Shown here piece after piece: positions 1-64,000 of a stretch of 64,000 nucleotides of DNA. The stretch comes from Chiloscyllium plagiosum (Eukaryota), in contig NC_057718.1 of assembly GCF_004010195.1 (NCBI RefSeq), forward strand, positions 67,534,408 to 67,598,407. The letters run 5' to 3'. The translations under genes and the position numbers were made by a program. The notes beneath the pieces were generated by a model that was not told the origin of the DNA, made no database searches, and saw only the letters and a list, made by a program, of their open reading frames with translations. Each line of letters opens with the position of its first letter. Positions within the stretch are counted from its first letter, which is position 1.

Positions 1-538
1 GGCACCTTCCCCTGCAACCACAAGAAGTGCAAAACTTGCGCCCACACCTCCCCCCTCACCTCCCTCCATGGTCCCAATGGATCCTTCTATATCTGTCGCA
101 AATTCACCTGCACCTCCACGCACATCATTTACTCTATCCGCTGCACCCAACGTGGCCTCCTCTACATTGGGGAGACAGGCCGCCTGCTGGCGGAACGTTT
201 CAGGGAACATCTCTGGGGCACCCGCACCAACCAACCCAACCGCCCTGTGGCTGAACACTTTAACTCCGCCAAGGACATGCAGGCCTCCTCCTTCTCCAGA
301 CCCTGGCCACACGACGCCTGGAGGAAGAGCGCCTCATCTTCCGCCTAGGAACCCTCCAAGCACAGGGGATGAATGTAGATTTCTCCAGCTTCCTCATTTC
401 CCCTCCCCCCACCTTATCTCAGTCTCAACCACCAGATTCAGCACCGCCTTCTTGATCTGCAATCTTCTTCCTGACCTCTCCGCCCCCAACCCCTCCCCGG
501 CCTATCACCCTCACCCTCACCTCCTTCCACCTATCGTA
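1..538 (+). mobile_element. Penelope-like element (Neptune-type) 3' part: Cys-rich linker, GIY-YIG endonuclease and C-rich 3' region
   Basis: Frame 1 from base 1 reads GTFPCNHKKCKTCAH...FTCTSTHIIYSIRCTQRGLLYIGETGRLLAERFREHL...PVAEHFNS, with IIY...YIGET GIY-YIG motifs; frame decays after ~270. Confidence 0.9.
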
Positions 539-1078
539 TCTAAAGCAGATACATAAGGATATGCAAGATTTAATGACCTGTTAAACCTTAGTATCCCGGA
601 ATGGATTTTGAATCCACTTGAAGTACAACCCACCCAAGTTGAGGCAGAAATTCAAGAGAGGTTGATTGATCTTCAGACTACGGAAAAGGCCCAAATATTT
701 TTTATTGCCTTACCTCAACATATTTGGTTGAGAACGGATTCTGCAAGGTAGTTTCCTTGACAAAATCCAGGAACAGAATTATTAGCGCAACAAGAGATGA
801 CCTCCGATGGTCATTGTCTAATTTGGAGCACAATTTCATGAAACTTGCAGAAAAACACCAAGCTCAAGGATTGGATTAGCTATGATAGATGTTTAATTTC
901 ATACAGTCCTTTTTTTAAAGACTGTCCAATATGTTGGAATGTTCAAGTTTTCTTGGTGTTTAGTAATAAATGATTTTCTATCTATCTGTTTGTATTGTAT
1001 CCCTGTTTGAAAGGGGGGCCCGGTACCTGAGAAGAGCTCCTAGAGAGGCCATGGCCAAAACACGGTGAAGAGTCATTG
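539..1078 (+). mobile_element. hAT (Charlie/Buster-like) transposase C-terminal remnant with 3' end
   Basis: Broken frames give RFNDLLNLSIPEWILNPLEV...EIQERLIDLQ, PSTYLVENGF and DDLRWSLSNLEHNFMKLAEKHQAQG; ends in a degenerate ...gaagagtcattg terminus at ~1078. Confidence 0.75.
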
Positions 1079-2049: not shown

Positions 2050-3075
2050 AAATGGTGGTACAGTACCAAGTCAGGATGGTTTTAGGAGAACTTTTAGATA
2101 CTGGTGCTCCATTAATCTGCTGTCCTTGTCCTTCCACATGGTGAGGTCACAGGTTTAGAAGGTGTTCTCTAAAGAGACTTGGTGAATTTCTGCCGTGTGT
2201 TTACCAACTGTGGGTGAATGGTGGAGGGAGTGGGCTTCTTTGTCCAGGAGAGTCTCAAACTTCTTCAATATTGTTGGAAATGTACTCATCCAGACAAGTG
2301 TATATTATTCTATCATGCTCCTGACATGTGGTGGATGGGCTTTGAGGATTTAGGAGGTTAATTACTCATTGCAGATTTCTCAGCTTCTGATCTGCTGTTG
2401 TAGGTACAGTATTTATATGTCTGGCCTAGTACAGTTATTGGTCAATGGGTAATGCCATCAATGGCATCAATGGTAATGCCATCAAATGGCAAGTAGTAAT
2501 GGTTGGATTCCCTCTTTTTGGAAATGATAATTGCCTGGCAATTACATGGCACAAATTTTATTTGTCACTTAACAGTTCAAGCCTGAATATTAAATATCTT
2601 GATGTATTTGGACACAGCCGACTTCAGTATCTGAGGAACTATGAATTCCAGTAACCATTGTGCTGCTGTCAGTGTGCATCACCACCTCCAACTTTATGAC
2701 GAGGGAAAGTCATTGATGCCTCGATGTCTATGAAGCAATTGGAAATGATCTGGCTCAGAAACTATCCTGAGGAACTCTTGCAAAGAGGCCTGTGTCTGAA
2801 ATAATTAACATCCAACAGCCACAACTATTTTCCCACGTGCGAGGTATGGCACAGACCAACAGAGTTTTTTCCTCTTAATTCTCATTGACCCCAGTTTTGA
2901 TAGGATTCCTTGATAATAGTTCTGAGGAAAGGTCACGCAACCTGAAACATTACGTCTGACCTCTCTCCACACATGCTGCTAGACTTGCTGAGCTTAGCCA
3001 GCAATTTCTGTTTTTGTTCCTTGATAACATATTCAGTCAAATGCTGCCTTGATAACAAGAGCAGTCATATTCCTA
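2050..3075 (-). mobile_element. Old CR1-group LINE RT fragments with a short PLE arm at ~2920-3020
   Basis: Resembles the reverse complement of RT parts of the old LINE at 34.9-35.9 kb; heavily decayed. Confidence 0.5.
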
Positions 3076-11385: not shown

Positions 11386-11388
11386 ATC

Positions 11389-14948: not shown

Positions 14949-15175
14949 AGAGAAAGTGAGGACTGCAGATGCTGGAGAGTCAGAGTCAATAAGTGTGTTG
15001 CTGGAAAAGCACAGCAGGTCAGGCAACATCTGAGGAACAAGAGAGTTGATGTTTCAGGCATAAGCCCATCATCAGGAATGCAATCCTCATGAAGGGCTTA
15101 TTCCCGAAACATCGACTCTCCTGCTCCTCGGATGCTGCCTGACCTGCTGTGCTTTTCCAATGCCACATTTTTTGA
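14949..15175. mobile_element. Fold-back PLE-derived short element with 15-bp TSD
   Basis: Inverted arms around ~15080; TSD cttctacaaa(a/g)tatg at 14934-14948 and 15176-15190. Confidence 0.85.
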
Positions 15176-16046
15176 CTTCTACAAAGTATGGTAGTAAGTA
15201 TTTGACTATAAAGATCTCTGCAAGTTCAAAGAAGTCCAAGTGTCTAAAAGCACTAGAGAAATGACACCAGCAATGGTGCTTCCTCTTATGGGACAACCAT
15301 TGAGTGATTGCTAATGTCCTCTTAAAGACAGCTCTACAAACAACAAAATCCCTGGAAAGCCAATTACAATAGACTGCACACTGAGTTTGCATGGCTGCAA
15401 GAAGTCTCCCCACGCAATTTTCTCAAAGCTTTGACAGCCAACATTCCGGAGGAGAGCACAGAAAACACTACAAATAGATCCTGGAATTATCTTTGAAGTG
15501 CAGGAAAATTAACATTAATGATTAGGAAGGCTGTCATAAGTTGTTCAAGATGACAACAATTTGTCCATTAAGCTGTATCATGCTTCGAGTCCAACCACTT
15601 TTGTTGAGGAGATCTCCTTACCCTGGTCCTGTGCAAGCAATACAAGAGTCAGAATTCCCAAATGGGGCTGCAGAGAACTGCATCTATCCATCTGACAAAT
15701 TTGTTCGCAAGTGGATTTTGATTGATTTGAGGCATGGCCACAGGAATGCACCAGAGAACAGTTAATTCCCATGCATTTGTTAAACTGAAACCATGCCAGT
15801 CAAGTCTGAAAGGTCAAGACATTGCCATGGGGAATTCCACAGGAAATGTTTGTTCCCAAATTTTGTTTAATTTTAAAAGACACAACACATGAATGTGTTT
15901 CTTTGTTTGCAATGGACAAGTCCCTACATATTGATTAATCGAGCTTCTAGCAAGTATGCTTGAGCCTGACTGACAATTTCTGAAACAGTCGCATTTGTTT
16001 AGCAAGTGCAGTCCAATCACAGAATCACATTTAGTGTTACATAAAA

Positions 16047-16422: not shown

Positions 16423-16778
16423 TCAAGAGTGCGGTGCTGGAAAAGCTCAGCAGGTCAGGCTGCATCTAAGGAGGAGGAGAATCGATGTTTTAGGCATAAG
16501 CCCTTCATCAGGAATGAGGCTTGTGGGCCGGGGGGGCTGAGAGATAAATGGGAGGGGGGTAGGGCTGAGGGCAAGGTAGCTGAGAATGTGATAGGTAGAT
16601 GAAGATGGGGGAGACGATGATAGTTCAGAGAGGCGGGTGGAGCGGATAAATGAGAAAGAGGATGGACAGGTCAAAAGGGCAGTGCCGAGTTGGAGGCTTG
16701 GGACTGAGATCAGCTGGGGGGAGGGGAAATGAAGAAACTGGTAAAATCCACATTAATCCTGTGTGGTTGCGGGGTGCC
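16423..16778 (-). mobile_element. PLE 3' region, same family as 1-538
   Basis: Reverse complement resembles 350-538 and continues into the cctgatgaagggcttatgcc terminal motif. Confidence 0.85.
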
Positions 16779-17277
16779 TAGCCTATTATTTAACCTCAAT
16801 CAACACCACAATAAAAGAATATCTTAGCATAACTGCTCAAGACAGGCAATTCAGCCCATCAAGTTATGCTGTCTCTATATGCAGCAATCCTGTCAGTCCC
16901 ACTCCCCTGTTCTCTCCTTGTTTCCCCCAGAAGTTTATTTCCCTCAACATTTCCTTTTGAAATTATTGATCATCTCAAGTTTCCAGCCCCTCATGAACAG
17001 CATTCCAAATCATTACCACTTACTGCAGAAAAATATCGCAACTTACCCTCACCTCCTCGCACACACACACACCTCACCCCAGAACTCTGTGTCCCCTCAT
17101 CCTGGTAGCATCGACAAATAGAAATCTGCTAGTTATTGAAATCTGAATATTTGATTGCTGATGTTGTCCAAGTGGAGATGAATTACACCTCTGTCCCCAA
17201 CATGTTTGTTGTTCAAATGGTGTCCCAAAGGATGAAAAACTTTAGCTTTGTATGGCAGTGGAAGGAGTTCCTTGAAT

Positions 17278-17402
17278 ATGAAGAAGGGCTTATGCCCAAA
17301 ACGTCGATTCTCCTGTTCCATTGATGCTGCCTGACCTGCTGCGCTTTTCCAGCAACACATTTTTAAGCTCTGATCTCCAACATCTACAGTCCTTACTTTC
17401 TC
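17278..17402 (+). mobile_element. PLE terminal arm
   Basis: gaagaagggcttatgcccaaaacgtcgattctcctg...gcttttccagca. Confidence 0.8.
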
Positions 17403-25126: not shown

Positions 25127-26785
25127 GGGCTGAATCTTACGGTTTTATGGCATTGAGATCGGTGGAGTGATTCTTGCAACAGCCGAGCATATTTTCTCGC
25201 CATACCTTACCAAATTTTCCACATCACTTGGAATTTCAGCCCTTATGGCAAGTATCACAACAGATTTCCATTACATCTTTTCATGCGCCTTTCCTAACTC
25301 ACAGTCACTGGAGAACACAGCGTTCCCATAGTTAAAAGGCCATTGTGCAGCCAGCCAATCACTGTCAATGCGAAGTTGCCCTGCATGGTTCCTGACATTT
25401 ACCCTAGATGTAACAGTTGGGAGATATTACTATCCTGCTTTGCGAATATCATCCTTCAGTTTCTGGTGGACAGGCTAGTGTACAGGTGGGACTTCCATCT
25501 TTTCCAGGATCAGCACTGGAGGAAACTACTTTGCTAGCCTCATCCAAGATTGCCACCTGGATTAGAGCAGTCATAGACATCAAGAGAAAGCTTCAACACT
25601 CTATGAAGAAGGTCAATATTCTTCTCTATTGGAGGCATAGGTGCCTTCATCTTCCCTCTAACACTTCACACTTACTTTATCGCTTCTACTGTACCCTTTA
25701 AGATTCATGCTTTCCCCCTCTCACAAATGCCTGCAACATCTTCCCCACTCCCGGAAGTGGCGATCAACAGGTGAAAGCTCTGCAAGTGATTGCACAACTG
25801 TACAGCTGAGAAGAACTATTGCTGACAACCATGACAATGTTCTTGGCTTTATGGCTGTGCTAAATAGCATGACAAGATGGTAGCATTAGGAGCCTGGTAA
25901 CTTGAGATGCGGGGCTAATATGCAAAAAGACAAGGCCACGCAAGGTGGAGATGTGGCAAGTGGCCTGGCTCAGAGTGAGTACTAAAGCAATGAAAGAAAA
26001 GCCCCACACATGCGACCTGGTCCAATCCACAGGCTGGGTGTGCATTTGTGAATGCGAATTGCTCCTGCTGCATTGGAATGATAATTGCTGATGTAACCTG
26101 AGGTGAAACATCGAAGCATCCTGGAAGTGGATTGGACATGTACCATGGCTGACGTGTCAGATGCCAATATCTGTGGACGTAGGGTGCATGTGCCTGTGCC
26201 CATGGAGCTTACCTGAAATGTTGATGCTGGTGTCCAATGTGGATGCCTTTTATAGCAAGTGTCAAAAAGTGTGGCGCTGGAAAAGCACAACAGGTCAGCA
26301 GCATCCAAGGAGCAGAAGAGTCGACATTTTGGGCATAACGCCTTCATCAGGAATCCAAAATGCCGGCTGTCCTGCTCCTTGGATGTTGCCTGACCTGCTG
26401 TGGTTTTTACAGCGCTACACTTTTCAACTTTGACTCTCCAGCATCTGCAGTCCTCACTTTCACTTTTTTATAATTGAATCCACCAAAACCGACCTTTCCA
26501 TAGTTTCCAAGCCAAGGTTTCTTAGTGACTAGTTTGTGTGGTGAGTTTGGTAAGATGACAATCCGTGGTGAGTTAGGCTGTTAATAAGGCATTAAACAAA
26601 CAATAATATGTGCCAACTGGCAATTCGCCACTACCTACCAAGAATCGCCAAACCACTTGAGAATAGCATATCAAAGGAGATGAGATAATCTTAACATCAT
26701 GATGTGCTTCACTGAATATCTGTCCTGATTCTACCAGACATCTCGCTGCAGACCATATCACTCAGAATCCTTTAAGATTCCACCC
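25127..26785 (+). mobile_element. PIF/Harbinger-like non-autonomous DNA transposon with Myb/SANT-like remnant
   Basis: Imperfect TIRs GGGCTGAATCTTA (25127) and TAAGATTCCACCC (ends 26785), 11/13 match; 25430-25630 reads CFANIILQFLVDRLVYRWD...KIATWIRAVIDIKRKLQHSMKKVNILL. Confidence 0.65.
26260..26465. mobile_element. Fold-back PLE-derived short element nested in the Harbinger-like element
   Basis: ctggaaaagcacaacaggtcagcagcatcc ... ggatgttgcctgacctgctg inverted arms. Confidence 0.8.
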
Positions 26786-37449: not shown

Positions 37450-38570
37450 CCTATGTCCAATGGCGTACCAATAGGGTTTAGTATTGGGTCCCTTCTGGTC
37501 GTTGTGTACATTAACGATCTGGACATGAATGTAGGAGGTACGATGAATGTGTTTGAAGATGACATGAAAATTGATGGTGTGGTAAATAGCAAGAAGGTAA
37601 GCCTTAGACTACGGGATGATATAGATAAACCGATGGTCTGAACAGTGATATAAGGAGTGTAATCCTGAAAAATGTGAGGTGATTCATTTTGGGAGGACTA
37701 ACGAGGGAAGGGAATGCACATTGAATGTTGGGATGCTTGGAGGTACAAAGGATCCGAGGGATTTTTGTGCTCACGTCTATGTACATCCTTGCATGCAGCA
37801 GGAGAAGTGGATAAGGTAAAGAAGTTAAATGAGATTCTCGCCTTTATTAATCAAGGCATTGAATACAAGAGCAAGAAGATTATGATGGAACAAAACAGAA
37901 AACTGTGGATGCTGGAAATCTGAAACACAAAAGAAATTGCTAGAGATTTTCAGCAGGTCTGGCAGCATCAGTGGAGGGAAAACAGAGTTAACCGTTTGAG
38001 TCCAGTGACCATTCTTCTACTTTCTCTTATGTTATGATGTAGTTGTATCTCATGTTAGTTAGGCCACAGCTGGAGTAATTTGTTTAGTTTTAATTGCCTC
38101 ACTATAAGAAGATGTGATTGGGTACAGAAGAGATTGAGCAGAATGTTGCCTGAGTTGGAGCAATTTAGTTATGAAGAGAAACTCGATAGTTTGAGGCTGT
38201 TTTTCTTAAAACCTAGCAGGCTGAGGGGGAAACAGATTGAAATGTACATAGTCCTGAGATGAATACATGGAGTAGATGGGGATAAACATTCCCCCTTAGA
38301 ACCATTAGTTATGAAAATATCCAGTGGACACAGTTTTAACAGATGATTTAGCAGGGCTTTGAGGAATTCTATTTTCACCCAGTGGGCATCTGGAACTGAA
38401 AGGGTGGCTTAGTTGGGAACCCGGAAGACATCAAAATGCCATAGAATGCTAGACTATAGGCCACATGCTGGAAAATGAGATTACAACAGATGGATGCTTG
38501 ATGACTGGCATAGATACGATGGGCTGAAAGGCATATTTCCATAGTTTACAATTTGTATGATTTTATGAAA
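37450..38570 (+). mobile_element. CR1 RT 3' half with old PLE arm at ~37890-38020
   Basis: GVPIGFSIGSLLVVVYINDLD..VFEDDMK. Confidence 0.85.
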
Positions 38571-39110: not shown

Positions 39111-39302
39111 GAGAAAGTGAGGACTGCAGATGCTGGAGATCAGAGTGGAAGAGTGTGGTGCTGGAAAAGCACAGCTGATCAAGCAGCATCCGAGGAGCAG
39201 GAGACTCAATGTTTCAATGAAGGGCTTATGCTTGAAATGTCGATTCTCCTGCTCCTCAGATGCTGACTGACCGGCTGTGCTTTTCCAGCACCACACTCTT
39301 TA
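39111..39302. mobile_element. Fold-back PLE-derived short element with 16-bp TSD
   Basis: TSD attgggttc(t/c)agtgtg at 39095-39110 and 39303-39318; inverted arms. Confidence 0.88.
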
Positions 39303-40344
39303 ATTGGGTTCCAGTGTGTCAAAGTCTTGTTGTCATGCAGTCAGTCTGGGGTTTTTAAGACTCTTAACGAAGTGTTGTACACACTGTGTCCATCCAGTGC
39401 CCTTTATAAGCCTGGGGCTTGGTCTGGAGGCTGGTGCAGTGGAACAAGTGGTCACAAGTATTAGGCAATTGGATGTTGTCATTGGGAATTTGGAAGGGCA
39501 AGGAAAATGTGTACATCTTCACAGTGAGTTCAAGGAATGTCAGGTTTCATTTTACCTATCTGTCCTTCTCCCTTCAAGGTTTCGAGGGCATGCACTCTAA
39601 TATCCCTTTATTCCTCTACATTTCTTGGTAACCTAACATTTAATACATTATTCCTTACTTTTGATGCCTTTCGCAAATGTGTTGGCTCACACCTCTAGAG
39701 ATTGAATTCAACTTATCACTTTCTGCCAACTGCTCAGACTATTCATACCTTCGTGCAATCTGGATTATTCTTATTCATCATCAGCCATATGATTTGGAGA
39801 TGCCATATGAGTAGGTTATGTATCATCTATGCACATCTTAATCAACCTACCACTCACATTAATCTAAATCATTGAGGGATACCATGAAAAGCAAGGTATG
39901 GAACCCTCCCTTCCTAGTAATAATATCCCAGTACAGAACCCTGTTAAAAAACCACCTGTCACAGGTCCTGCCACAGGTCCAATCTTCCCCCGGCATTTTA
40001 TTTTCCTGACAGTCTGCCATGTCGGACCTGATCAAACGTATTGCTAAAATCCATGTAAATTGCACTAAGCACACTACATTCATCTACTCTCTTTATCTTT
40101 TGATCAAAAAATTCAAGCAACTTAGTCAGACATCTTTCCTTAACTAAATAATGCTGAATGTCATTGATTAATCTGCACCCTTCAAACTGACAATTTATGC
40201 TACCCCTCAGAATTTTGCGAACAATTTGTTAGCATTTGGTCACTTCTACACCCCCACACCACCACCCCCCACCCCTACCCCATCCATACTTTTTAACCAA
40301 CAATACAATGCTTCAAGGTTTCTGGTTATCCAAGGTTTTTAGCA

Positions 40345-44984: not shown

Positions 44985-45930
44985 AAAACAGGAAATGCGG
45001 AGAAACTGTGCAGGTCTGGCAATAGTGTGGAGAAAGAAATAGCATTGTGTTGTGACTTTTCTTCAGAATTGAAAAGCGCTAGAAAGTGATGGGTTCTATG
45101 CTGCAAAAAGGGGGAGGAGGAGCAACTGTAACTGTAAGGATGCCCAAGACCAAAAGACAAAGAGGGTACTAATGGTAATATGGAAGGGATACAAATAAAG
45201 AATATATGTTTATGGTATGTGTTAATAGAAAATAGGTCAACTCTACTGAGAACAAACTCATGCAAACTCATGGGGTATAGGAAGGGGTTTGGGAAGAAGG
45301 TAATCAAAATAGAGGACAGTGTTCATGCTCTGAATTTGTTGAACTCAAAGTTGTTCCCTGAAGTCTGTAAAGAAAATAAAGTGCACCTCCTCCAACTTAT
45401 GTTGGGTTTCACTGCAACTCCACACTGCACTACATTTAGGACAGAAATATTAGCATGAGAGCTAGATAGTGGATCAAAATTGCAAGCAACCAGCAAGTTG
45501 GGGTCATTCTTGCAGACACAGTGGAGATGTTCAGCAAAGTGGTCACCCAGTCTACCTTTAGCCTCACCAATGTAAGAGATACAACATTGTGAGCAGTCAA
45601 TACAGTGAACTAGATTGAAAGGCGTGCAGGTAAGTTACTGTTTCACCTGGAAGAATAATTGGGTGCATTGAACAATTAGGAGAGAGGAGGTAAATGGGAA
45701 AATATTGCAGTTTTGCAATTGTGTGGAAAAGTGCCATAGGGTAGATGGAGAGCAGTTAGCATTGATGGAGGAGTGGACCAGGGTATCATACAAGAAGCAG
45801 GTCCCGGTGTAACGCAGATAGGCAAGGGGAAGATGTGTTTGGTGATACTATCCAGCTGGAAGTGGCAGAAATAGTGGAGGCTGATCTTTTGAATGAAGAA
45901 GCTGGTGGAATGGCTTGCCTATGTCAAGCA
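44985..45930 (-). mobile_element. Old Penelope-like element (GIY-YIG and 3' region)
   Basis: Minus strand ~45620-45510 NLVHCIDCSQCCISYIGEAKGRLGDHFAEHL. Confidence 0.8.
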
Positions 45931-48561: not shown

Positions 48562-48564
48562 AAT

Positions 48565-48583: not shown

Positions 48584-49433
48584 CAAAATCTAGAATTCCA
48601 AGTTCATTTTAGGATTGTTGGACTCAAGGGTGGCGAATAGTAATTGTTAGTGTCCTTTGTTTTGGGTATTGAATTCTGTTGGTTTAAACAAGGTGTGCAT
48701 TGTGTCATAATAGTTATTTCGATCATGAGCAGTTTTCTGGGTGTTGAATAAGTGAATTCTGGAGTTTTATCAAAAGTGAGCAAGGCAAAGCTGGTGAAAT
48801 TGGCAGACAAGCTGGAGTTGGGATTCCCTGGGTCTGCGAGGAAAGGGGAGATAATTACAGCAATAATTCAAAATTTAAAATTGTCAGAAGTGTCATCAGA
48901 ATCTTTGGAAATGACTAAAATTCAGTTGCAAATGAAGCAACTTGAATTGCAGGCAAAAGAAAAGGAAAGATTAGCTCTGGCAGAACAAAAGGAAAGTGAA
49001 GAGGAAATGAAACAGTTTGAATTATGTTTAAAAGCAGAGGAAAAAAGAGGAGAGGAAGAAGAAAGGCGGAAGGAGAGAGAGACTGTGAACTTCGAATATT
49101 GGCAATTAAAGAGGAGTGTCGACTTAAAATGGTGGAGATGAAGGGAGAAGGCAGGCTTACTGTGGAGGATAATGATGACGAGCAAACCCATTGTAGCCAA
49201 AGCACTGTTTGGGATCTGTTTGAATATGTCCAAGTGTTGTCTAAATTTGACGAGAAGGATATAGAAGCCTTTTTAATTTCATTTGAGAAAATGGCTAAAC
49301 AACTGAAGTAGCTGGTGACCAGGTGGGTTTTGTTGATCCAAACAAAGTTGGTAGGTAGAGTTAGTGAGGTATGTGCATCACTATCAGAGGAGGTATCTGG
49401 AGAGTATAAGGAGGTGAAAAAAGCCATCTTAAA

Positions 49434-52311
49434 TAAATTAAAGTGCATTTATTGCAATGCAAGGGTCCTAACATGGAAGGCAGATGAACTCAGGGCATGG
49501 TTAGGAACATCGGACCTGGATAACATAGCAATTACAGAAATATGGCTCAAGGATGGGCAGGACTGGCAGCTTAATGTTCCAGGATACAAAATGCTAAGGA
49601 AGGATAGGAAGGGAGGCAAGAGAGGAGGGGGAGTGGTATTTTTGATAAGGGATAGCATTACAGCTGTGCTGAGGGAAGATATTCCTAGAAATACATCCAG
49701 GGAAGTTATTTGGGTGGAAATGAGAAATAAGAAAGGGATGATCACCTTACTGGGATTGTATTATAGACCCCCTAATAGTCAGAGAGAAATTGAGAAACAA
49801 ATTTGTAAGGAGATCTCAGTTATCTGTCTGATTAATAGGGTGGTTATGGCAGGGCATTTTAACTTTCCAAACATAGACTGGGACTGCCACAGTGTTAAGG
49901 GTTGAGATGAAGAGGAATTTGTTAAGTGTGTACAAGAAAATTTTCAGATTCAGTATGTGGATGTACCTACTAGAGAAGGTGCAAAACTTGACCTACTCAT
50001 GGGAAATAAGGCAGGGCAGGTGACTGAGGTGTCAGTGGGGGAGCACTTTGGGGCCAGGGACCATAATACTACTAGATTTAAAATAGTGATGGAAAAGGAT
50101 AGACCAGATCTAAAAGTTGAAATTCTAAATTGGAGAAAGGCTAATTTTGACGGTATTAGGCAAGAACTTTCAAAAGCCTATTGGGGGCAAATGTTCGCAG
50201 GTAAAGGGATGGCTGGAAAATGGGGAGCCTTCAGAAATGAGATAATGAGAATCCAGAGAAAGTATATTCCTGTTAGGGTGAAAGGGAACGCTGGTTGGTA
50301 CAGGACATGCTGGATGAATAAAGTAATTGAGGGTTTGGTTAAGAAAAAGAAGGAAACATATGTCAGGTATAGACCGGATAGATCGAGTGAATCCTTAGAA
50401 GAGTATAAAGGAAGTAGGAGTATACTTAAGAGGGAAATCAGGAGGGCAAAAAGGGGACATGAGATAGCTTTGGCAAATAGAGTAAAGGAGAATCCAAAGA
50501 GTTTTTACAAATACATTAAGGACAAAAGGGTAACTGGGGAGAGAATAGGATCCCTCAAAGATCAGCAAGGCGGGCTTTGTGTGGAGCTGCAGAAAATGGG
50601 GGAGATACTAAATGAGTATTTTGCATCAATATTTACTGTGGAAAAGGATATGGAAGATATCGAAAGTAGCAAAATAGATGGTGACATCTTGCAAAATATC
50701 CATATTACAGAGGAGGAAGTACTGGATGTCTTGAAATGCATAAAGGTGGATAAGTACCCAGGACCTGATCAGGCGTACCCTAGAACTCTGTGGGAAGCTA
50801 GAGAAGAGATTGCAGGGCCTCTTACTGAAATATTTGTATCATCGATAGTCACAGGTGAGGTGCCTGAAGACTAGAGGTTGACTAATGTGGAGCCATTGTT
50901 TAAGAAGGGTGGTAACGACATGCCAGGGAACTATAGACCGTGAGCCTGATGTCGGTGGTGGGCAAGTTGTTGGAGGGAATCCTGAGGGACAGGATGTACA
51001 TGTATTTGGCAAAGCAAGGACTGATTAGGGATAGTCAACATGGCTTTGTGCAAGGGAAATCATGTCTCACAAACTTGATTGAGATTTTTGAAGAAGTAAC
51101 AAAGTGGATTGATGAGGGCAGACTGATGGATGTGATCTATATGGACTTCAGTAAGGAGTTCGACAAGGTTTCCCATGGGAGACTGATTAGCAAGGTTAGA
51201 TCTCATGGAATACAGGGAGAACTAGTCATTTGGATACAGAACTGGCTCAAAGGTAGAAGACAGAGGATGGTGGTGGAGAATTGTTTTTCAGACTGGAGGC
51301 CTGTGACCAGTGGAGTGCCACAAGGATTGGTGCTGGGCCCTCTACGTTTTGTCATTTACATAAATGATTTTGATGTGAGCATAAGAGGTATAGTTAGTAA
51401 GTTTGCAGATGACACCAAAATTGGAGGTGTAGTGGACAGCGAAGAAGGTCACCTCAGATTATAACAGGATCTTGATCAGATGGGCCAATGGGCTGAGAAT
51501 TGGCAGATGGAGTTTATTTCAGATAAATGCGAGGTGCTGCTTTTTGGGAAAGCAAATCTTAGCAGGACTTATACACTTAATGGTAAGGTCCTACAGAGTG
51601 TTGCTGAACACAGAGACCTTGGAGTGCAGGTTCATAGCTCCTTGAAAGTGGAGTCGCAGGTAGATAGGATAGTGAAGAAGGCGTTTGGTATGCTTTCTTT
51701 TATTGGTCAGAGTATTGAGTACAGGAGTTGGGAGGTCATGTTACGGCTGTACAGGACATTGGTTAGGCCACTGTTGGAATTATGCGGGCAATTCTGGTCT
51801 CCTTCCTATCGGAAAGATGTTGTGAAACTTGAAAGGGTTCAGAAATGATTTACAAGGATGTTGCCAGGGTTGGAGGATTTGAGCTATTGGGGAAAGGCTG
51901 AACAGGCTGGGACTGTTTTCCCTGGAGCGTCGGAGGCTGAGGGGTGACCTTATAGAGGTTTACAAAATCATGCAGGGCATAGATAGGATAAATAGACAAA
52001 GTCTTTTCCCTGGGGTGGGGGAGTCCAGACCTAGAGGGCATAGGTTTAGGGTGAGAGGGGAAAGATATAAAAGGGGCAACTTTTTCACGCAGAGAGTGGT
52101 ATGTGTATGGAATGAGCTGCCAGAGGAAGTGGTGGAGGCTGGTACAATTGCAACATTTAAAAGGCATTTGGATGAGCATATGAATAGGAAGGGTTTGGAG
52201 GGATATTGACCGGATGCCAGCGGGTGGGACAGATTGGGTTGGGTATCTGGTCGGCATGGATGGGTTGGACGGAAGGGTCTGTTTCCATGCTGTACATCTC
52301 TATGACTCTAA
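49434..52311 (+). mobile_element. CR1 with essentially complete but disabled ORF2 (APE endonuclease + RT), nested in gag
   Basis: LKCIYCNAR..IAITEIWL..YYRPP..GHFNFP; ORFs 49957-50874, 50940-51464 (KFADDTK) and 51480-51848; few stops; ctatga tail. Confidence 0.96.
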
Positions 52312-53364
52312 GTGTATATGAGCTTGTGACAGAGACCTACAGACAACATTTCAGGAATTGAAGGAGAGACACTGGTCAAAAATTCATTTTCTGAGGTAAT
52401 GAAAACTCATGCAGAAGAGCAGCAAGTTAAAACTGCAAGACTAGCAGCTGAAATGGCTGATGATTATGGTTCATAAATCAAAGTTTGTCTTTCAACATCA
52501 AATTCAATCTGTGAGGGATAGAAATTGAGGAAAAGAAAATTTGTCAGATGGTAAGGGAAAAGGAGATCTCAATGAAGATAATAAAGTCTGTTTACCATAG
52601 GGTAAAAAGGAAACGCGTGATGGGGGGGGAAGAGAAGTAAAAAAGCTCAGGTGTTTTCACTGTAATAAAGCAGGCTACATGAAGTTACAGTGTTTGTGGT
52701 TAGGAAAAAGCAATGGGAAGGCAGATGTGGGAAAACAGGATAAGGCATTGAATTATATTAAAGTGGTAAAGGAAAGCACAGTGGAAGCTAAAAAAAACTT
52801 CACCAGAATGTACAATCTGGTCAGAGGTTGGTTGAGAAGAAAGAGACAGATTTTCTTAAACCATTTACTTGCAAGAGCAAGGTTGACTTGCATATGCCAG
52901 GAGGAGCAAGTAAAGAAATTACAATTTTAAGAGTTATGGGAGCGTGTCGATCTTTGATGTTGAGAAATGAGGAGATATGGAACTCAAAAGGACTATTGCC
53001 AGAAAAAAATGATAATATGTGGAATTCATGGTGAGATGATAAGTGCTCCATTTATGTAAAATGAGGTTGGAGTATCTGGTGAAAAGTGGAGAAATGGTGG
53101 TAGGAGTACTGGAGGAATCCTTGATTCCAGGAATACAGTTTGCCCTTGGTAATGACATAACTGATTAACAGGTGAGACTGCTGCCCACAATGGTTGAACA
53201 GCCAGTATGAAATCCGGCAATTGAGATATTACAGGAAATATTATCCGAGATTTCTCCTGACTGTGTGACAATAAGATCACAAAGCCACAGGTGGAAGCAG
53301 ACAGAGAAATTAAAGAATAACGATAAGGCAGTTGAAATACAATTATCAGATATCATGTTTGATC

Positions 53365-53690
53365 ATGGTGTGGCACAATGGTTCAGTGATTAGCACTGCT
53401 ACCTCACAGTGCTAGACACCGGTTTGATTCCACTCTTGGGCAACTGTCTGTATGGAGTTTGCACATTCTCCCCCATGTTGGCATGGGTTTCCTCCAAGTG
53501 CTCCGGTTTCATCCCACAGTCAAAAGATGTCCAGGTTAGATGGACTGGTTGTGTTAAATTGCCCATTGTGTGTAGACTTGTGCAGGCTATGTGGTTTACA
53601 GGAATATGGTAGGATACTCTTTGAAGAGCTAGTGTAGACTCAATGGGCCAAATGGCTTGCTTCCACACTGTGTAGATTCTATGATTCTAT
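53365..53690 (+). mobile_element. HE1-type SINE nested in Gypsy B
   Basis: Head/body motifs; gattctat tail. Confidence 0.88.
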
Positions 53691-55067
53691 CAAATGGTTG
53701 AGAAAGACAAAAACAGGTGGAGGATAAAGTAAATATTTTTAGTTCAGAGAAATTAGCTGATTTAAAAGAGGAAGATGAATAATTGAAGCAATTGTATCAA
53801 AAGGCATATACAGAAAAAGAATCTGAATATATCTCAAAATATTACTATCTTAAAAATTATCTCTTGGTGAGGAAATGAAGACCATCACATATTCAGTCAG
53901 ATGAGAAACGGTTCATCAAGTTGTATTAGCAGTGGGTTATAGAAAGGAAGTGTTGTTGGTAGCACATTAATTACCAGTAGGGGGTCATTTAGGAGTAAGG
54001 AAAACTCAAGCCAAAATTCAAAAATATTTCCACTGGCTTGGAATGCAGAAGGATGTTGTTGAAGTTTGCCAACATGCCTTATATGGCAGATAATTGGAAA
54101 GCCTTTGGCTGTGATAAAATCAACACCTTTAATACCCATTCTGGCATTTGAAGAACCAAGTTCAGAGGATTTTGAATTGGACATTCCTCAAATTAAATTG
54201 GACAATTAGGAAGTTCTCAGAAATTGATATAAAATATTAGGTACCTTCCAGAGGAAAATTGAAATGACATGTGGAGTTATTATTATCTCATTAGGAGATA
54301 TGTGCGAATAAGCTTGGAATTAATAATCTAATTATGCATGATGTATATACAGGAAATGCTATTGCAATTAAGAAACATCCTTATAGGTTTAACCCTCTAA
54401 AATTCGCACAGGTTCAAAAAAAATTGAATGCATGCTCAAAGACAACATAATGAAAGTAAGTTGCAGCGATTGGAGCTCACCCATAGTAATAGTGTCAAAA
54501 CCAATGATTATGTGTGGACTATCGTAAAGTCAATGCAGCTACAATGTCTGATTCATATTCTATTCCATGTTAGGAAGACTGTGTTAAGAAGGTGGGACAG
54601 GCAACTTATATTTCTAAGTTGGACTTAATCAAGGGATACTGGCAGGTACCTTCATCTGGTAAAGTGAAGGCAACTTTGGCTTTTGTGACACTGAATGAAC
54701 TATACCAATTTAAAGTCATGTTATTTAGGATGAGAAACGTGCCAGCCACATTTCAAAGGTTAACCAATAAAGTCATTTCTGAATTAATCAATTATCTGGT
54801 ATACATTGATGACCTAATGTTATTTAGTCATACATGGAAGGAACATTGGCAGCATTTATTAGAATTGTTCAATTGACTTCAAGGGGCTTGCTTGGTGATC
54901 AACCTGGCTAAGAATGAATTCGCAAAAGCCCAAGTCATGTTCCTGGGCCATGTTCTCGGACATAGACAGATGGCCCCACAGAATATGAAAATAAAGATTA
55001 CTGGGGAGTTTACCATACCATCAACGAAGTGGCAGTACTACAATTCCTGGGATTGAGTGGGTTTTAT

Positions 55068-56412
55068 CAGATTGAGTTTAAGAGCCGCAAGGTTATACTG
55101 AAGCTCTATTGAGCCCTGGTTAGACCACACTTGAAAGATTGTGTTCAGTTCTGGCTGCCTCAATATAGGAAGAATGTGGAAGCTTTAGAAAGAGTGTAGA
55201 GGAGATTTACCAAGATTTTGCCTGGACTAGAGAGCATGTCTTATAAAACCATAAGAGATAGGATTGGAAGTAAGGCCATTCAGCCCATCGAGTCCACACT
55301 GCCATTCAATCATGGCTGATGGGCATTTCAATGCTATTTACCTGCACTCTTCCTGTATCCCTTAATTCCTTGCGAGATAAGAATTTATAAATCTCTGCCT
55401 TGAAGACATTTAACGTCCCGGCCTCCACTGTGCTCCATAGCAAAGAATTCCACAGGCCCACAACTCTCTGGCTGAAGAAATGCCTCCTCTTTTCCATTCT
55501 ATATTGACCCCCTCTAATTCTCAGGCTGTGCCCACAGGTCCTCACCTTTTGGAAACAATTTCTCAGCGTCCACCCTTTCTAAGCCATGCATTATCTTGTA
55601 AGTTTCTATTAGGTCTCCCCTCAATCTTCTAAACTCTAATGAATACAATCTCAGAATCCTCAGCCATTCATCGTATGATAGGCCTACCATTCCAGGGATC
55701 ATCCCTGTGAATCTCTCTGGACACTCTCCAGTGCCAGTATATCCTTCCTGAGGTGTGGGGCCCAAAACATGACACACTATTCTAAATGGGGCCTAACCAG
55801 AGCTTTATAAATTCTCAGTAACACATCACTGCTTTTACATTCCAACCCTCTTGAGATAAATGACAACATTACATTTGCTTTCTTAACCATGGACTCAACC
55901 TGCAAGTCAACCTTTAAAGAATCATGTACTAGCACTCCGAGATCCCTTTGTACTTTGGCTTTATGAATTTTCTCACCGTTTAGAAAATAGTCCATGCCTT
56001 ATGAAAAAAGATTGAGGCAGCTAAGGCTTTTCTCATTCAAGTGAAGAAGGGTGAGAGGTGACTTGACAGAGGTGTACAAGATGATGAAAGCCATAGAAAG
56101 ATTGAATAGTCAGAGACTTTTTCCCAGGGCAGAAATGGCTATCACAAGAGGGCATAACTTTAAGGTGTTTCCAGAAAGGAACTGTCAGAGGTTTACGCAG
56201 AGAGTGGTGGGTGTATGGAATGCACAGCCAGTGGTGGTAGTAGAGTCAGATACATTAGGGACATTTAAGTGATTTTTGGATTTGCACATGGATGATACTA
56301 AAATGAAGCGTATGTAGGTTAGTTTGATCTTAGATTAGGACAAAAGATCAGAACAACATCAAGGGCCAAAGGGCCTGTACTGTGCTGTACTTTTCTATGT
56401 TCTATGTTCTAA
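55068..56412 (+). mobile_element. CR1 3' fragment nested in Gypsy RT, itself split by an inverted CR1
   Basis: Starts IEFKSRKVILKLY; resumes ~56000 (RGDLTEVYKMMK); ttctatg tail. Confidence 0.9.
55248..55999 (-). mobile_element. CR1 3' fragment (third nesting level)
   Basis: ORFs 55777-55995, 55514-55777 and 55306-55545. Confidence 0.92.
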
Positions 56413-56959
56413 GTTCGCACCAAATTTTAGCAGTGTGGTTATTTCACTGACTGACTGACTGAAGAAGTGCAGAAAATTTCAGAGGATGGTGGACTGTCAG
56501 AAGGCATTTGACAGCTTGAAAGCTGTGTTAACCACCAACCCAGTGTTAGCCACACCTAATTATGCAAAGCCACTGAAGATGGCCATTGATGCGTGTGTCA
56601 GTGCTGGACTCTAACAAGAAGATGATGAGAAAATTGAAGGATCTATTGGTTATTTCTCCAGAAAATTGAATATTCTTCAACAGAAATATTCCACAATTGA
56701 GAAGGAAACTTTGAGCTTGGTGTTTGCATTATAAAATTTCAACGCTTATATGCCAGTAATGTATCTCAGACAATTGTATATTCAGATCATCACCCATTAA
56801 GGTTTTTGGAGAAAATTACAGACAAAAATTCTAGACTGTTTAGATTGAACTTATTATTGCAACCATTCAATTTAAAAAGTGTACTTGTGGCAGGATGAGA
56901 AAATGTAATTGCCAATGCATTGTCATGACTTTGATAAAGAAAGACAGAGGCATTCGATG

Positions 56960-58750
56960 GTGTGAGTGAAAGTTGAAAATGATGCTGGAGAAGTAGTAAT
57001 AGGGAACAAAGAAATGGCTAAGGAACTGAACAAGTACTTTGCATCAGTCTTCACAGAGTCAGGGGCAAAGGTCAGTATGGTGGCCATCACCAAGGAGAAA
57101 GTGCTAGAAGAACTGAATGGCCTAAAGGTGGATAAATTACTTGCACCAGATGGACAATTTCCCAGCTATCTGAAAGAGACACCTAGAGAGATAGTGGAGG
57201 CGGTTAGTAGTAACCTTTCAGAAATGACTGGAGCCAAGGAGGGTCCCAGAGGACAGGAAAATCCCTAATGTAACCCAACTATTTAAGAAGGAAGTATGGC
57301 AAAAGACTGGAAATTACAGGCTGATTAGCCTGACCTTGGTCATTGGTAAAATTTTGGAGTCCATTGTGAAGGATGAGATTTCTGAATATTTGGAAGTGCA
57401 TGGTAAAATAGGGCAAAGTCAGCATAGTTTCATTGTTGGGGGGTCATGCTTGAAAAATCTGTTAGTATTCTTTGAGGCGGTAACAAGCAGGTTAGACCAA
57501 GGGAAGCCAATGGGTTTTGTCTACCTGGACATCCAGAATGCCTTTGACAAGATGCCACACATGAGGCTACTGAGTAAAATAAGAAACCATAGTGTTAAAG
57601 GCAAGGTGCTAGCACAGATAGAAGATTGGCCATCTGGCAGAAAGCAGAAACTGGGGATAAAAGGGTTTCTCCCAGAATGACAGCCGGTGATTAGTGGTGT
57701 TCCACAAGAATCAGTGTTGGGACCACAACATTTCACTTTATATAACAGTGATCAAGATGAAGGAATTGAGAGCATTCTGGCTATATTTGCAGATGATATA
57801 GGTGGAGAGGCTGTTAGCATTGAGGAGTTGGGAGGCTGCAGAAGAATTTAGACAGACTAGGAGAGTGGGCAAAGAAGTGGCAGATGAAATATAATGTGGG
57901 AAAATGTGAGGTCATGCACTTTGATAAGAAGAACAGAGGCATAGACTATTTTCTAAATGGGGAGAAAATTTGGAACTTTGAAGTGCCAAAGGTACTTGGG
58001 AGTCCCAGTCCAGGATTCTCTCAAGGTAAACTTGCAGACTGAGTCGGCAGTTTGGAAGGCAAATATAATGTTGGCATTTAATTCACGAGGACTGGAATAT
58101 AAACGCAAGAATGTATTTCTGAGGTTTATAAAACTCTGGTCAGATCACATCAAGTCCACAGCATTTCTGACAATGAATTCCACAGATACACCACTCTCTG
58201 GCTAAAGAAATTTCTTCTTATTTCCATTCTAAAGGGTCTTCCCATACCTCAGGAAGGATGTGCTGGCCCTGGTGCGGGTTCAGAGGAAGTTCACGAGAAT
58301 GATCCCAGGAATGAAAGGCTTAACATGTGAGGAATGTTTGAAGACTCTGAGTCGATACTCATGGAGTCGAAGGATGAGGGGGGATCTAATTGAAACTTAC
58401 AGAATACTGAGTAGCCTGGACAGATGGATGTTAGGAAGATGGGAGGAGAGACTAGGACCCAAGTGCACAGCCTAAGAGTAAAGGGAAGACCCTTTAGAAT
58501 GGAAATAAGAAGAAATTTCTTTAGCCAGAGAGTGGTGTATCTATGGAATTCATTGTCAGAAATGCTGTGAAGGCCAGGTCATTGAGTATATTTAAGACAG
58601 AAATGGATGGGTTCTTGATTGTCAAGAGGATCAAGGGTTATGGGAGAAAGCAGGAGAATGGGGTTGAGAAACTTATCAGCCATGATTGAATGGTGGAGCA
58701 GACTTGATGGGCCAAATGGCTGAATTTTTGCTCCAATGTCTTATGGTTGT
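56960..58750 (+). mobile_element. CR1 RT nested in Gypsy B 3' region
   Basis: ORFs 56966-57268, 57336-57680 (VYLDIQNAFDK) and 58260-58475. Confidence 0.9.
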
Positions 58751-59943: not shown

Positions 59944-60163
59944 CAGAGTCAAAAGCGTGGTGCTGGAAAAGCACAGCCGGTCAGGTAGTGCCTGAGGAGC
60001 AGAAGACCTGGCATTTCGAGCATAAACTCTTCATTATGACGAAGAGCTTTTGCTCGAACCGTCGACCCTCCTGCTCCTCGGATGCTGTCTGACCAGTTCT
60101 GCATTTCCAGCACTACATTTTTCGACTCTGATCTCCAACATTTGCAGTCCTCACTTACTCTTA
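59944..60163. mobile_element. Fold-back PLE-derived short element with 13-bp TSD
   Basis: TSD gaagaatttcaac at 59931-59943 and 60164-60176. Confidence 0.88.
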
Positions 60164-61540
60164 GAAGAATTTCAACAAGCTCAGAACCCAGGTACTCATG
60201 GTCAATGTAACTGCATTTCATATGAGGAAAACATCATTGATCTTAGAAGAATGTTAACTGAACACAAGAAAAAATGTGTGGGAATCAAGGTTATGTTGGT
60301 ATACATCAACTCTTTATGACTGAGAATCATAAGGGACTAATGATTTCATGGGTCTTGAAGAATTGTTCAATTGTTTTTCCACTGCAAATGATTCTTCAAA
60401 ATTTGGTCATCGGACATCTCTGACACCAAGACCACTAGGAGTTAGTAGTAGATTCTTGGTACAGTCAAGCCTTCTGTTAAGAAGAAGCTGTACCAAAGCA
60501 ACAGCAACAACTTTGCTGTCTATGATTGAATCAGATTAAATGACAATGGTATCCAAACAAATATGTACAAGAATAGAAGGATCACATGTGAGTTTACATG
60601 CTATAAAGTCAAAAGGAGAAGATTACTTATTTCAAAAACACAGCAATATTTCCTGTCACGATTTGAGAATAAGATCCTCTGAAGGAGACAAATATTCAAC
60701 AATAACATCAACACAGAACATGTCTTCAATAAAGGGCATTTGGGAAATCAAAGATCCATCAAGGTTCCAGTATAGCAACAAACTAGTATTGAATATTTTG
60801 TCGTCAAGTGATAGATTTCCAACATCCATGAAGTCAGAGACTTAGATGAAATAGAGCTAAGCTAATACGAAACAATTGTATAAAAGATTTGATAAACAGA
60901 ATATGCTGCTTGGGGTAGATATTATAAAGGCAGTAGTACCTGAGAGGCTAACTGGCATCCCAAGATAAGTGCCTCAGATTAGGGTATAAAGGATTATTTC
61001 TGGGAAGATTTAACCGGTGTTCCAGTTTATGTGTTAAGTTATATGTAGCTAAATAATAATGTGTACTTGAGCTTAAGGCTTACAAAACTCATGTAACTCA
61101 GATTTCATATAAATAACATTTAAGTACTATATAATAAACACACTCTATTCAACAAAACTAAGCCTCTCATCTGCCAAAGACTCCATCTGCATATCAGTAA
61201 ATTATATGAATAGCAACAAGGATAGTGAATATACCTAAAAGAGCTCAGATGGACATGACCATGATATTAGCTGCATCTCTCACCTTGACAGGATCCCAGA
61301 TGAAGTCCTTTTTGCTGTCAGTACTTTTTAAAAATTCTTTCGTGGGATAGATATTGCTGACAAGGCTAGCATTTGTTGTTCATTCTTAATTACCTCTTGA
61401 ACTAAGTGAATTGTTAGGCAATTTCAGAAGTGTCACAACTCCCTGGAGTAGCACACTGAGTATTAAGCCTTGGTATTCTTGAATTTTTCCACAAAAGTTA
61501 AAGATTTTGAAATAAGTACATTATATTCCCCAAATTATCT

Positions 61541-61606
61541 GATTTTTCAGATCCACACTGACAGAAAACTTAGATAAATTTTCTGTCAGTGTGGATCTGA
61601 AAAATC
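61541..61606. repeat. Perfect 28-bp inverted repeat with 10-nt spacer
   Basis: gatttttcagatccacactgacagaaaa / ttttctgtcagtgtggatctgaaaaatc. Confidence 0.95.
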
Positions 61607-61696
61607 TGAAAACGTAGATAAGTTTTCTGTGCTGAAAAGAATGACTATTTATTACACTTAAAATCTAGCTAACCAGCTTAACAGTAAGAAACCATC

Positions 61697-62095
61697 GACA
61701 TGGATAGGCTAGGATATTTTTCACTGGGGCATGGGAGGTTGAGGGGTTATCTTGTAGAGGTTTATAAAATCATGAGGGATATAGATAAGGTGAATGGCAG
61801 GTGTCTATTCCCTAAGACGGGGAATTTCAAGACAATGGGGCATATTTTTAAGGTGAAAGAAGCAAGTTTTAAAGAAGGCATGAGGGAATTTTGTTTTACA
61901 CGTAGAGTGGTTTGTGTGTGGAATGAACTTCCAGAAGAAGTAGTGGATTTGGATACAGTTGCAATGTTTATAAGATATTTGCATAAGTACTTGAATAAGA
62001 AATGTTTGGAGGGATATGGACCAAGCATAGGCATGTGGGACTAGTTTCGTTTGGGATTATGGTTGGTAAGGACTGATTGGACTTAATGACTCTAT
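61697..62095 (+). mobile_element. CR1 3' fragment
   Basis: ORF 61700-62044. Confidence 0.9.
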
Positions 62096-62124
62096 ATAAT
62101 TCTATTAATTAAAATTCTAATTAC

Positions 62125-62318
62125 CTTCAGACAGGGAAAAACACATGGATGGAGGGGGAAAGTACTGGAGAGACAATTCAATAGTCTTTGCTCCTAAGTT
62201 CTGCTGAGTTGGTTCTTGCTGATTCGAACGTTTTTTCCTGACTTCCATTTTTCAGCAATTCTACTAGTTCGCGAGAGGCACAGGGTGTTGGTTCCCTTTT
62301 AAGATACTTGTGATCTAT
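62125..62318 (-). CDS. Probable penultimate coding exon of an unidentified host gene
   Basis: Acceptor gatttttaatag|, donor GAAG|gtaatt; phase-0 frame IDHKYLKREPTPCASRELVELLKNGSQEKTFESARTNSAELRSKDY*; no repeat resemblance; retains CpGs. Confidence 0.6.
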
Positions 62319-62629
62319 CTATTAAAAATCACAGCTTACAGCAATTGCTAAAGGTAATATTATTTTTTTCTGGTTTGAAGTGAGTTTTAGTTGCAAAGAA
62401 CAGACAAACCTTTCAGTGATTTTAAATGTTACTGTCCAATCTACATATAACCTGGTCACTTGAATATGTTGTATCAATCTGGATTGTAATTAAAGGTGGA
62501 CCTTGAATTGGCACATGGAACTTGTAGAGTGCTTGTACAGTTCAAAATGTCAGACTTCAGCAGTATTGTTTAGACTATAAATTTTGAGGAAAGGATATAT
62601 AGAGTTTTAGGAATGTTCTCTTTGCCCAG

Positions 62630-63440
62630 TGGAGTGTTCTGAGATTGTTGACTGAGCTGGTAAGTTTGTTTGCAGATATTTCATCACCAAACTAGGTAAT
62701 ATCATAAGTGCGCCTCCAGTGAAGCATTGGTGTTCTGTCCTGCGTGCTATTTATGTGTCCTGGTTTGCTGAGGTGGGTGGTATCATTTCCAGTTTTGTTT
62801 CTTAGTGGTTGGTATATGGGGTCCAACTCTACATGTTCGTTAATGGTGTTCTAGGTTGAGTGCAAGGCCTCCAGGAATCCCCTAACATAGCTTTGTTTGG
62901 CCTGTCCTAGGATGGATATGTTGTCCCAGTCGAATTGGTGTCCTTCTTTATCTATGTGTATGGACATAAGTGATTATTGACCATGTCTCTTGGTGGCTAT
63001 GTAAAGACTGCCAGAAACATTACATAGGGCAAACCAGAAGAAAACTAACCATCAGGGTACACGAACACCAATTGGACACTAAGAGATATGATCTACTATC
63101 ACTTATTTCCAAATACACAGATGAGGATGGACACCAATTCAAATAAAGACATGTACAGGAATTCCTGGAGGCCTGGCACACAACCCGGAGCTTCATTAAC
63201 AAAAATATAGAGTTATACCCCATATACCAACTCCAAAGAAACAAAACTGGAAATGATACCCACCTCAGCAAACTGGGACACATAAATAGCAAGCGGGACA
63301 GAACACCAATGTTTCATCGGAGGTGCACTGATGATGTTACCTAGAATGGTGATGAAACAACTGCAAATTAGCTTACCAACTCAGCAAGCAAATCAACAAC
63401 CTCATCCACAACCTGAGCTACAAATCTTTCCAAGAACTTC
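62630..63440 (+). mobile_element. Penelope-like element 3' end with inverted upstream copy
   Basis: 63000-63140 CKDCQKHYIGQTRRKLTIRVHEHQL; EFLEAWH..FINKNIELYPIYQ; 62630-62995 is the inverted counterpart. Confidence 0.9.
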
Positions 63441-63452
63441 AAAGTTTCTGGG

Positions 63453-63788
63453 TCATAGAGTCACAGAGATGTACAGCACGGAAACAGACCCTTCGGTCCA
63501 ACCTGTCCATGCCGAGCAGATAGCCTAACCTAACCTAGTCCCATTTACCAGCACTTGGCCCATATCCCTCCAGCCCCTTCCTATTCATATTCCCATCCAG
63601 ATGCCTTTTAAATGCTTTAATTGTACCAGCCTCCACCACTTCCTCTGGCAGCTCATTCCATACACGGATCACCCTCTGCGTGAAAAGGTTGCCCTTTAGG
63701 TTCCTTTTAAATTTTTCCCCTCTCATCCTGAACTTATACTCTCTAGTTTTGGACTCCCCCACTCCAGGGAAAACATCTTGTCTATTTA
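63453..63788 (-). mobile_element. CR1 3' end
   Basis: ORF 63535-63834. Confidence 0.92.
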
Positions 63789-64000
63789 GAGCTGAAAATG
63801 TGTTGCTGGAAAAGCGCAGCAGGTCAGGCAGCATCCAAGGAGCAGGAGAATTGACGTTTCGGGCATGAGCCCTTCTTCAGGAAGAAGCCCTTCCTGAAGA
63901 AGGGCTCATGCCCGAAACGTCGATTCTCCTGCTTCTTGGATGCTGCCTGACCCGCTGCGCTTTTCCAGCAACACATTTTCAGCTCTGATCTCCAGCATCT
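63789..64000. mobile_element. Young fold-back PLE-derived element inserted in CR1
   Basis: ~95-bp near-perfect inverted arms 63789-63883 / 63891-63985. Confidence 0.9.
63890..63925 (+). ncRNA. Minimal type I hammerhead ribozyme motif with intact core
   Basis: TC-CTGAAGA-A-GGGC-TCAT-GCCC-GAAACGTC-GA: CUGANGA and GAAA core, 4-bp stem II, palindromic ACGT stem III, GUC triplet. Confidence 0.75.

Follow-up and report, generated by a model that had tools for sequence, protein, structure and literature searches.

Two truncated Penelope-like 3′ ends joined head to head in Chiloscyllium plagiosum: a likely by-product of transposition with a predicted silent hammerhead core on each strand

The window (the whole stretch of 64,000 nucleotides analysed here, positions 67,534,408 to 67,598,407 of the forward strand of Chiloscyllium plagiosum contig NC_057718.1) closes with a fold-back element at 63788–64000. 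Its two inverted arms match the 3′ end of a Penelope-like element (PLE), and each strand carries a hammerhead core. The locus is organized as follows:

63456..63787, minus strand: older LINE fragment hosting the insertion, with an AT-rich junction
63788..63884, minus strand: left arm, an inverted 5′-truncated copy of the PLE 3′ end, without tail
63853..63880, minus strand: minimal hammerhead core in which a CpG transition at 63852 disrupts the first pair of stem I
63885..63893, no strand: junction, a 5-nt hairpin loop plus 4 nt
63890..63986, plus strand: right arm, a sense 5′-truncated copy of the PLE 3′ end
63894..63921, plus strand: minimal hammerhead core, nominal cleavage after 63921, stem I of 2 bp
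63987..64000, plus strand: beginning of the one-sided PLE tail, truncated where the window stops (about 18 nt longer in sister copies)

Each arm consists of 97 nt, of which 94 (97%) are complementary to the other arm across a centre of 5 nt, in agreement with the original observation of inverted arms of about 95 bp with one hammerhead core per strand. The three mismatched pairs are 63852/63922, 63840/63934 and 63821/63953. The RNA of the fold-back is predicted to form a single long hairpin (−201.9 kcal/mol, z −26), which was equalled by 0 of 200 shuffles. Bases 63886–63893 of the junction are also complementary to core and stem II bases 63899–63906, and 8 of 9 junction bases agree with the reverse complement of the core/stem II. 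On the left, the insertion interrupts a LINE fragment, which we take to be CR1-like from its motif. The 82.9% match of this fragment to 51989–52310 stops precisely at the arm start, and the LINE paralog runs on where the locus changes over to the arm. On the right, the window stops 14 nt into the one-sided tail.

A near-perfect palindrome at a window edge may arise as an assembly or library artefact, and among the contig pieces shown, which were retrieved with one arm only as query, none spans the locus. However, the arms differ at three sites, each of them a private change against the family majority, and four older sisters have diverged arms and target duplications, which together render a false palindrome extremely improbable. 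One of the three differences, the CpG transition in stem I of the minus copy, amounts to 4.6% and 7.8% of the family DNA depth; the other two are private right-arm changes against family majorities of about 93%. Thus, 3 changes have accumulated in 194 arm bases.

Both cores consist of CUGAAGA-A, a 4-bp stem II and GAAA-CGUC, and the boxes lie where they were originally placed, at 63894–63921 (plus) and 63880–63853 (minus). The catalytic boxes, the G10.1–C11.1 pair, the extra base after A9, the palindromic 15.2–16.2 pair and the NUH triplet of PLE minimal type I hammerheads are found on both strands, which bears out the initial assignment to a PLE-type minimal type I motif whose stem III is palindromic and loop-less and in which A9 is followed by an additional base (PMC4209133). 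Stem I has 2 contiguous base pairs in the plus copy and 0 in the minus copy, where the C/A mismatch previously noted at the first pair is indeed present. A 2-bp helix I is also reported for the D. virilis hammerhead (PMC4209133). A descriptor of core and stem II has 6 matches in the window, compared to a mean of 0.06 and a maximum of 1 in 200 dinucleotide shuffles; with the palindromic 15.2–16.2 pair and NUH added, 3 window matches remain, two of them in this element, and none occurs in 200 shuffles. Rfam covariance models gave no hammerhead match in the window, the element or a single arm, either at the gathering threshold or at E≤10. Covariance-model or descriptor search had been proposed as a check; the motif is recovered by the descriptor and by no hammerhead family of Rfam. 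The minus-strand core is the mirror image of the plus-strand core and represents neither an independent feature nor separate evidence.

Metazoan PLE minimal hammerheads, as described in PMC4209133, share the CUGANGA and GAAA boxes, the extra base between positions 9 and 10.1, G10.1–C11.1, the palindromic 15.2–16.2 pair and the lack of loop 3. The Schistosoma representatives have a stem II of 7–8 bp and a stem I of 4–5 bp (PMC4209133), compared to 4 bp and 2 bp here. Nearby dual minimal hammerheads on opposite strands are already known from the same source, where they lie 100–700 bp apart, whereas the present cores are 13 nt apart and fully paired together.

The window also holds further copies and relatives of the arm. 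BLAST and profile searches of the window identified four further fold-backs and two single arms of the family, which are listed here with the remnant that links them to a coding region and with the decayed ends of a sister family:

1..540, plus strand: PLE remnant with Cys linker and GIY-YIG domain
14950..15178, minus strand: sister fold-back with tail and 13-bp target duplication
16425..16790, minus strand: longer single copy with the last GIY-YIG ORF codons, a C/T-rich 3′ region, hammerhead and arm
17279..17402, plus strand: single arm with tail, the closest relative of the fold-back arm in the window (90.7%)
26258..26465, plus strand: sister fold-back with tail, right arm from +18, 7-bp flank repeat only
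39111..39303, minus strand: sister fold-back with tail and 13-bp target duplication
59944..60162, plus strand: sister fold-back with tail and 13-bp target duplication
2922..3005 (plus), 38000..37908 (minus) and 45793..45000 (minus): decayed ends of a sister family whose hammerhead region is related

The parent element can be traced through the longer single copy. This copy (16790–16425) passes unbroken from the last codons of an ORF through the C/T-rich region into the hammerhead and arm. Its arm part is 86–88% identical to the fold-back, and its upstream part (16590–16781) is 74.6% identical over 193 nt to window positions 345–535, which come after a reading frame whose product has both a C-x4-C-x2-C linker and a GIY-YIG domain. 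The remnant at 1–294 scores 27.3 bits against Pfam GIY-YIG (cutoff 22.6), and C-x4-C-x2-C is present at the start of its translation and in homologs. Among 161 candidates, 113 are relatives of this frame; the shark Chiloscyllium punctatum is the named source of the top two (77% and 67%), and a relative of 894 residues contains a reverse transcriptase (RT) followed by GIY-YIG. No RT remnant of the arm's family was found within the window. A Cys-rich linker, CX2-5CxxC, between RT and endonuclease (EN) characterizes the Neptune/Nematis clade (PMC8557442). We thus assign the arm to the 3′ end (pLTR) of a putative Neptune/Nematis-type PLE, with the clade indicated by the Cys linker and the endonuclease connected through two intermediate copies (75% and 86–88%).

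Other PLE lineages in the window show a comparable architecture. The sister-family copy at 45793–45000 is a more decayed remnant with the same order of Cys-linker/GIY-YIG endonuclease, 3′ region and hammerhead-like end. A second PLE family has left a fold-back at about 8172–8590 with 124-nt arms (95%), a 17-bp target duplication, GIY-YIG C-terminal codons in the spacer and a hammerhead per strand with a longer stem II and a 3-bp stem I. A third family is represented at 62645–63440, directly upstream of the LINE hosting the present insertion, by an older and longer fold-back with a GIY-YIG remnant (about 62990–63250) and a hammerhead at 63328; a target duplication was sought for it and none was found. 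The second and third families have other stem II sequences around the same catalytic boxes. Retention of the boxes with differing stem II sequences points to selection on the motif in the active lineages, rather than in these copies.

Each of the five fold-backs has one arm that stops at a first fixed site and another that continues into the tail, which is about 33 nt long in all four sisters. Direct repeats of 13 bp, scoring 10–13, flank three of the four sisters for which both flanks are available. A score of at least 10 is reached by 4 of 1500 random pairs of flanks, and none of 30 mismatched pairs scores above 5; the 7-bp repeat of the fourth sister is reached by 2.7% of random flanks. A MITE-like DNA transposon, whose terminal inverted repeats hold a hammerhead-like motif by chance, would likewise be short and high-copy, with long inverted arms and flanking duplications. 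In 5 of 5 fold-backs, however, only one side has a tail beyond the inverted repeat, and such asymmetric ends contradict this explanation. Single arms also exist, and the arm forms one uninterrupted sequence with a GIY-YIG retroelement remnant, so that a MITE is highly improbable.

Outside the window, one arm matches, at 85% likeness, 51,595 of 21.6 million contigs from the window's species and 68,905 of 39.3 million from another species, counts that are not copy numbers. Pattern scans of metagenome and viral contigs yielded 0 copies. A literature search, thin on subscription journals and made without Repbase or Dfam, turned up no publication about the shark family. In both species, a few contigs contain, at very low depth, a 33-nt tandem duplication of the hammerhead unit (joint 63923 to 63891), which would set two same-strand cores side by side in a possibly dimer-competent form.

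We conclude, with a probability of about 0.8, that the fold-back consists of two 5′-truncated 3′ ends of a high-copy PLE, arranged head to head, likely by one insertion event, and that its hammerhead is predicted to be inactive through antisense pairing. The insertion is likely a young truncated Penelope fold-back and a dead by-product of transposition. EN+ PLE insertions typically comprise inverted 5′-truncated copies, a one-sided tail of 30–40 bp and target duplications (PMC3846280, PMC8557442). The insertion units in Fig. 2 of each of these papers are alike in their head-to-head inverted copies, one-sided tail and palindromic junction, and share the target duplication, which is known here from the sisters. 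In contrast, the present element has no ORF between the arms, and both copies are only about 100–130 nt long. The duplications of the rotifer EN+ PLE examples, 8–10 bp in these sources, compare with 13–17 bp in this window.

According to PMC11167929, a purified PLE protein nicks AT-rich DNA on both strands and extends each of them; synthesis begins at two internal sites of the RNA, which delimit the tail, and hammerhead cleavage is not required. The GIY-YIG nuclease of the PLE would nick AT-rich DNA in a staggered fashion, and each freed 3′ end would prime reverse transcription on uncleaved element RNA, with RT starting at one of two internal sites about 33 nt apart. Both cDNAs would end after about 100–130 nt, near the hammerhead, and then join at their inner ends. 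One cDNA per nicked strand would place an antisense arm at the left flank and a tailed sense arm at the right flank, as seen, and the inserted copy would then decay neutrally. Dual priming as the source of the inverted copies is what we infer here, and it goes beyond the available text of PMC11167929. Alternatively, snap-back self-priming of a single cDNA would yield the same layout; self-priming on the antisense strand has been proposed (PMC3846280). The Poseidon element PAc of Anolis carolinensis, as presented in PMC11167929, shares the two fixed 3′ ends defining the tail and the AT-rich target, and likewise has no RNA ends at the hammerhead site; the shark family differs in its Neptune/Nematis-type Cys linker.

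The inner ends of the arms were read from the alignment, with arm limits set by hand. Relative to C3 of the hammerhead, 11 of 12 lie between −9 and +19, one lies near −270, and none is at the cleavage site (+28). This tight clustering and the complementary junction of 8–9 nt are unpredicted by plain random truncation. The clustering would be accounted for if reverse transcription ran off the 5′ end of an uncleaved pLTR transcript. A snap-back scan of the cDNA 3′ end showed pairing peaks near the core (−19 to −7, and +8); snap-back pairing was rejected as the cause of the clustering because equally strong peaks lie far upstream (−256, −196 and −176). At −4, C is present in the two arms of this copy, compared to A in four other arms. 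Together with the palindromic junction, this C could reflect an inherited palindromic pLTR end, of a kind that has been described (PMC3846280), or a native upstream variant.

The same observations bear on the possibility that short fold-backs form a non-autonomous family that propagates in its own right, in which the Penelope enzyme copies the hairpin RNA in trans and this copy has inherited its junction from a master fold-back. Short fold-backs of similar size make up 5 of the 7 family insertions in the window, and the clustered inner ends, the C at −4 shared by both arms and the 8/9 match of the junction to the core/stem II reverse complement would all be consistent with such a master copy, as would 50 contigs of set X1 with similar inverted sequence entering 63890, although their agreement is only 0.34. 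However, the five fold-backs have five different junctions, the outer ends lie at two fixed sites, one per arm, as expected of priming sites, and RT would need to unwind a 97-bp stem. Opposite-strand joints in contigs are scattered and shallow, a weak test since contigs break at hairpins. On balance, we regard a propagating family as unlikely. Non-LTR retrozymes (bioRxiv 10.64898/2026.07.22.740005) also combine a non-coding PLE-derived repeat with a type I hammerhead, but in them the units are repeated head to tail, and two or more hammerheads lie on the same strand. The inverted pair described here has a single core per strand and no same-strand tandem, and a non-LTR retrozyme was therefore rejected.

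With the fold-back read as two truncated PLE ends, the fate of its ribozyme can be considered. The transcript of each strand contains the antisense core first and then one sense core, and therefore allows no dimer in cis. In the full hairpin, the predicted probability that the core is unpaired is 0.0006 (plus) and 0.001 (minus), and forcing the hammerhead fold costs 58 (plus) and 51 (minus) kcal/mol, or about 50–58 kcal/mol overall. In a simulated growing transcript, the core pairs base by base while emerging. Even in the lone plus arm, a hairpin between the junction and the core/stem II is favoured over the hammerhead by 6–7 kcal/mol. Cofolding of two minimal copies gave a misfolded dimer and no double hammerhead, with an energy model that cannot score such a core. 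The hairpin is thus predicted to bury either core and to keep the ribozyme silent in this copy.

Transcripts of the family are present in RNA run X21, with 2,351 reads on the arm in both directions, of which only 63 are at least 99% alike to this copy. These reads show neither a pile-up of molecule ends nor a depth step at 63921/63922, weak evidence from a fragmented polyA single-cell library with many source loci. For the flanking stretch 60200–63790, no RNA dataset was listed. The proposal that the plus copy could self-cleave after 63921 finds no support here, given the leading antisense arm, the pairing of the core on emergence and the absence of a dimer in cis. The hairpin had also been suggested to compete with ribozyme folding and thereby possibly to silence it; the calculations agree that the hammerhead is out-competed (by 50–58 kcal/mol), but not with a designed silencing device. 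The mismatch of the minus copy is a CpG transition also seen elsewhere in the family and fits ordinary decay rather than a control.

A functional, regulated ribozyme pair, in which the plus copy cleaves after 63921 under the control of the hairpin and the minus-strand mismatch, could be argued from the two intact cores with their palindromic stem III, from the family RNA on both strands in that one run and from a related anole ribozyme that cleaves with protein help (PMC11167929). Against it, the cores lie on opposite strands and form no dimer in cis, the folding penalty and the pairing during transcription apply to both, and even a lone arm, whose stem I is 2 bp, prefers another hairpin; the reads provide no sign of cleavage, within the limits of that library, and the intactness of the cores is accounted for by youth. 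We consider such a pair very unlikely.

Conservation within the family is in line with this assessment. The full core is kept in 2 of 12 family arms in the window, both within this young copy, and the outcome leans negative for preferential conservation of the core across copies, which had been set beforehand as a test. The intact cores of this copy are explained by its youth. G12, the general base of the hammerhead (PMC6155905), is changed to A in 7.9% and 12.2% of the DNA depth and in 16% of RNA reads, similar to the 7.7–14.4% at neighbouring stem III CpGs, both among the 40 of 61 rows listed. CpGs outside the motif are at 6–9% raw, or 11–25% when scaled to the CpG-bearing share, among the same 40 of 61 rows and in contigs that drop rare variants. 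Catalytic G12 is thus lost at CpG-like rates across the family, and may be under mild protection.

Variable places in the RNA include 10 A>G and 11 T>C changes, compared to 1 and 5 in each DNA run, and the strand bias fits the A-to-I direction in 9 of 10 rows (among the 40 of 61 rows listed, with RNA from a different individual). Relative to DNA, the rise in A>G and T>C does not clearly exceed that of other changes, which are also raised in RNA (p = 0.10). Over 63885–64000, the X21 reads show an A>G plus T>C excess that is not separated from locus-specific variants. A-to-I editing of the family hairpins may occur and is a lead only. A broader proposal, that a self-propagating Penelope hairpin RNA of about 230 nt, its ribozyme turned off by its own antisense arm, is copied in trans at very high numbers and feeds ADAR-edited double-stranded RNA, is improbable.

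As one of very many decaying Penelope ends, the fold-back matters mainly for annotation. Such hairpins are liable to be mis-annotated as MITEs, miRNA precursors or double ribozymes; the miRNA matches of this fold-back are sub-threshold only. The family is nevertheless useful as study material: the positions at which the arms stop and join form a fossil record of the Penelope insertion mechanism and of whether the hammerhead cuts the template. Even without self-propagation, the 5′ end of the real template RNA could be read from the fold points, which, collected genome-wide, would show that uncleaved, rather than ribozyme-cleaved, RNA is inserted. The hairpins of the family are also a likely source of double-stranded RNA, a role played by inverted Alus in primates.

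Several other repeats are present in the window. An unrelated small palindrome at 61535–61630 has 38-nt arms (92%) with a 2-nt centre and a partial third copy, and a pair of 94-nt inverted arms (96%), 225 nt apart, lies in a LINE-like fragment at 58157–58569. Several kilobases of nested LINE-like and LTR-retrotransposon-like sequence at 4116–11707 and 48085–56861 are in opposite orientations with 68–81% identity; their class labels, and that of Gypsy for other window repeats, are our presumption. ARAGORN called no tRNA on the copies of a SINE-like repeat of about 300 nt, which occurs six times (14125–14445, 32770–33059, 34010–34197, 40346–40629, 42045–42227 and 53363–53684) and which we take to resemble the shark HE1 SINE.
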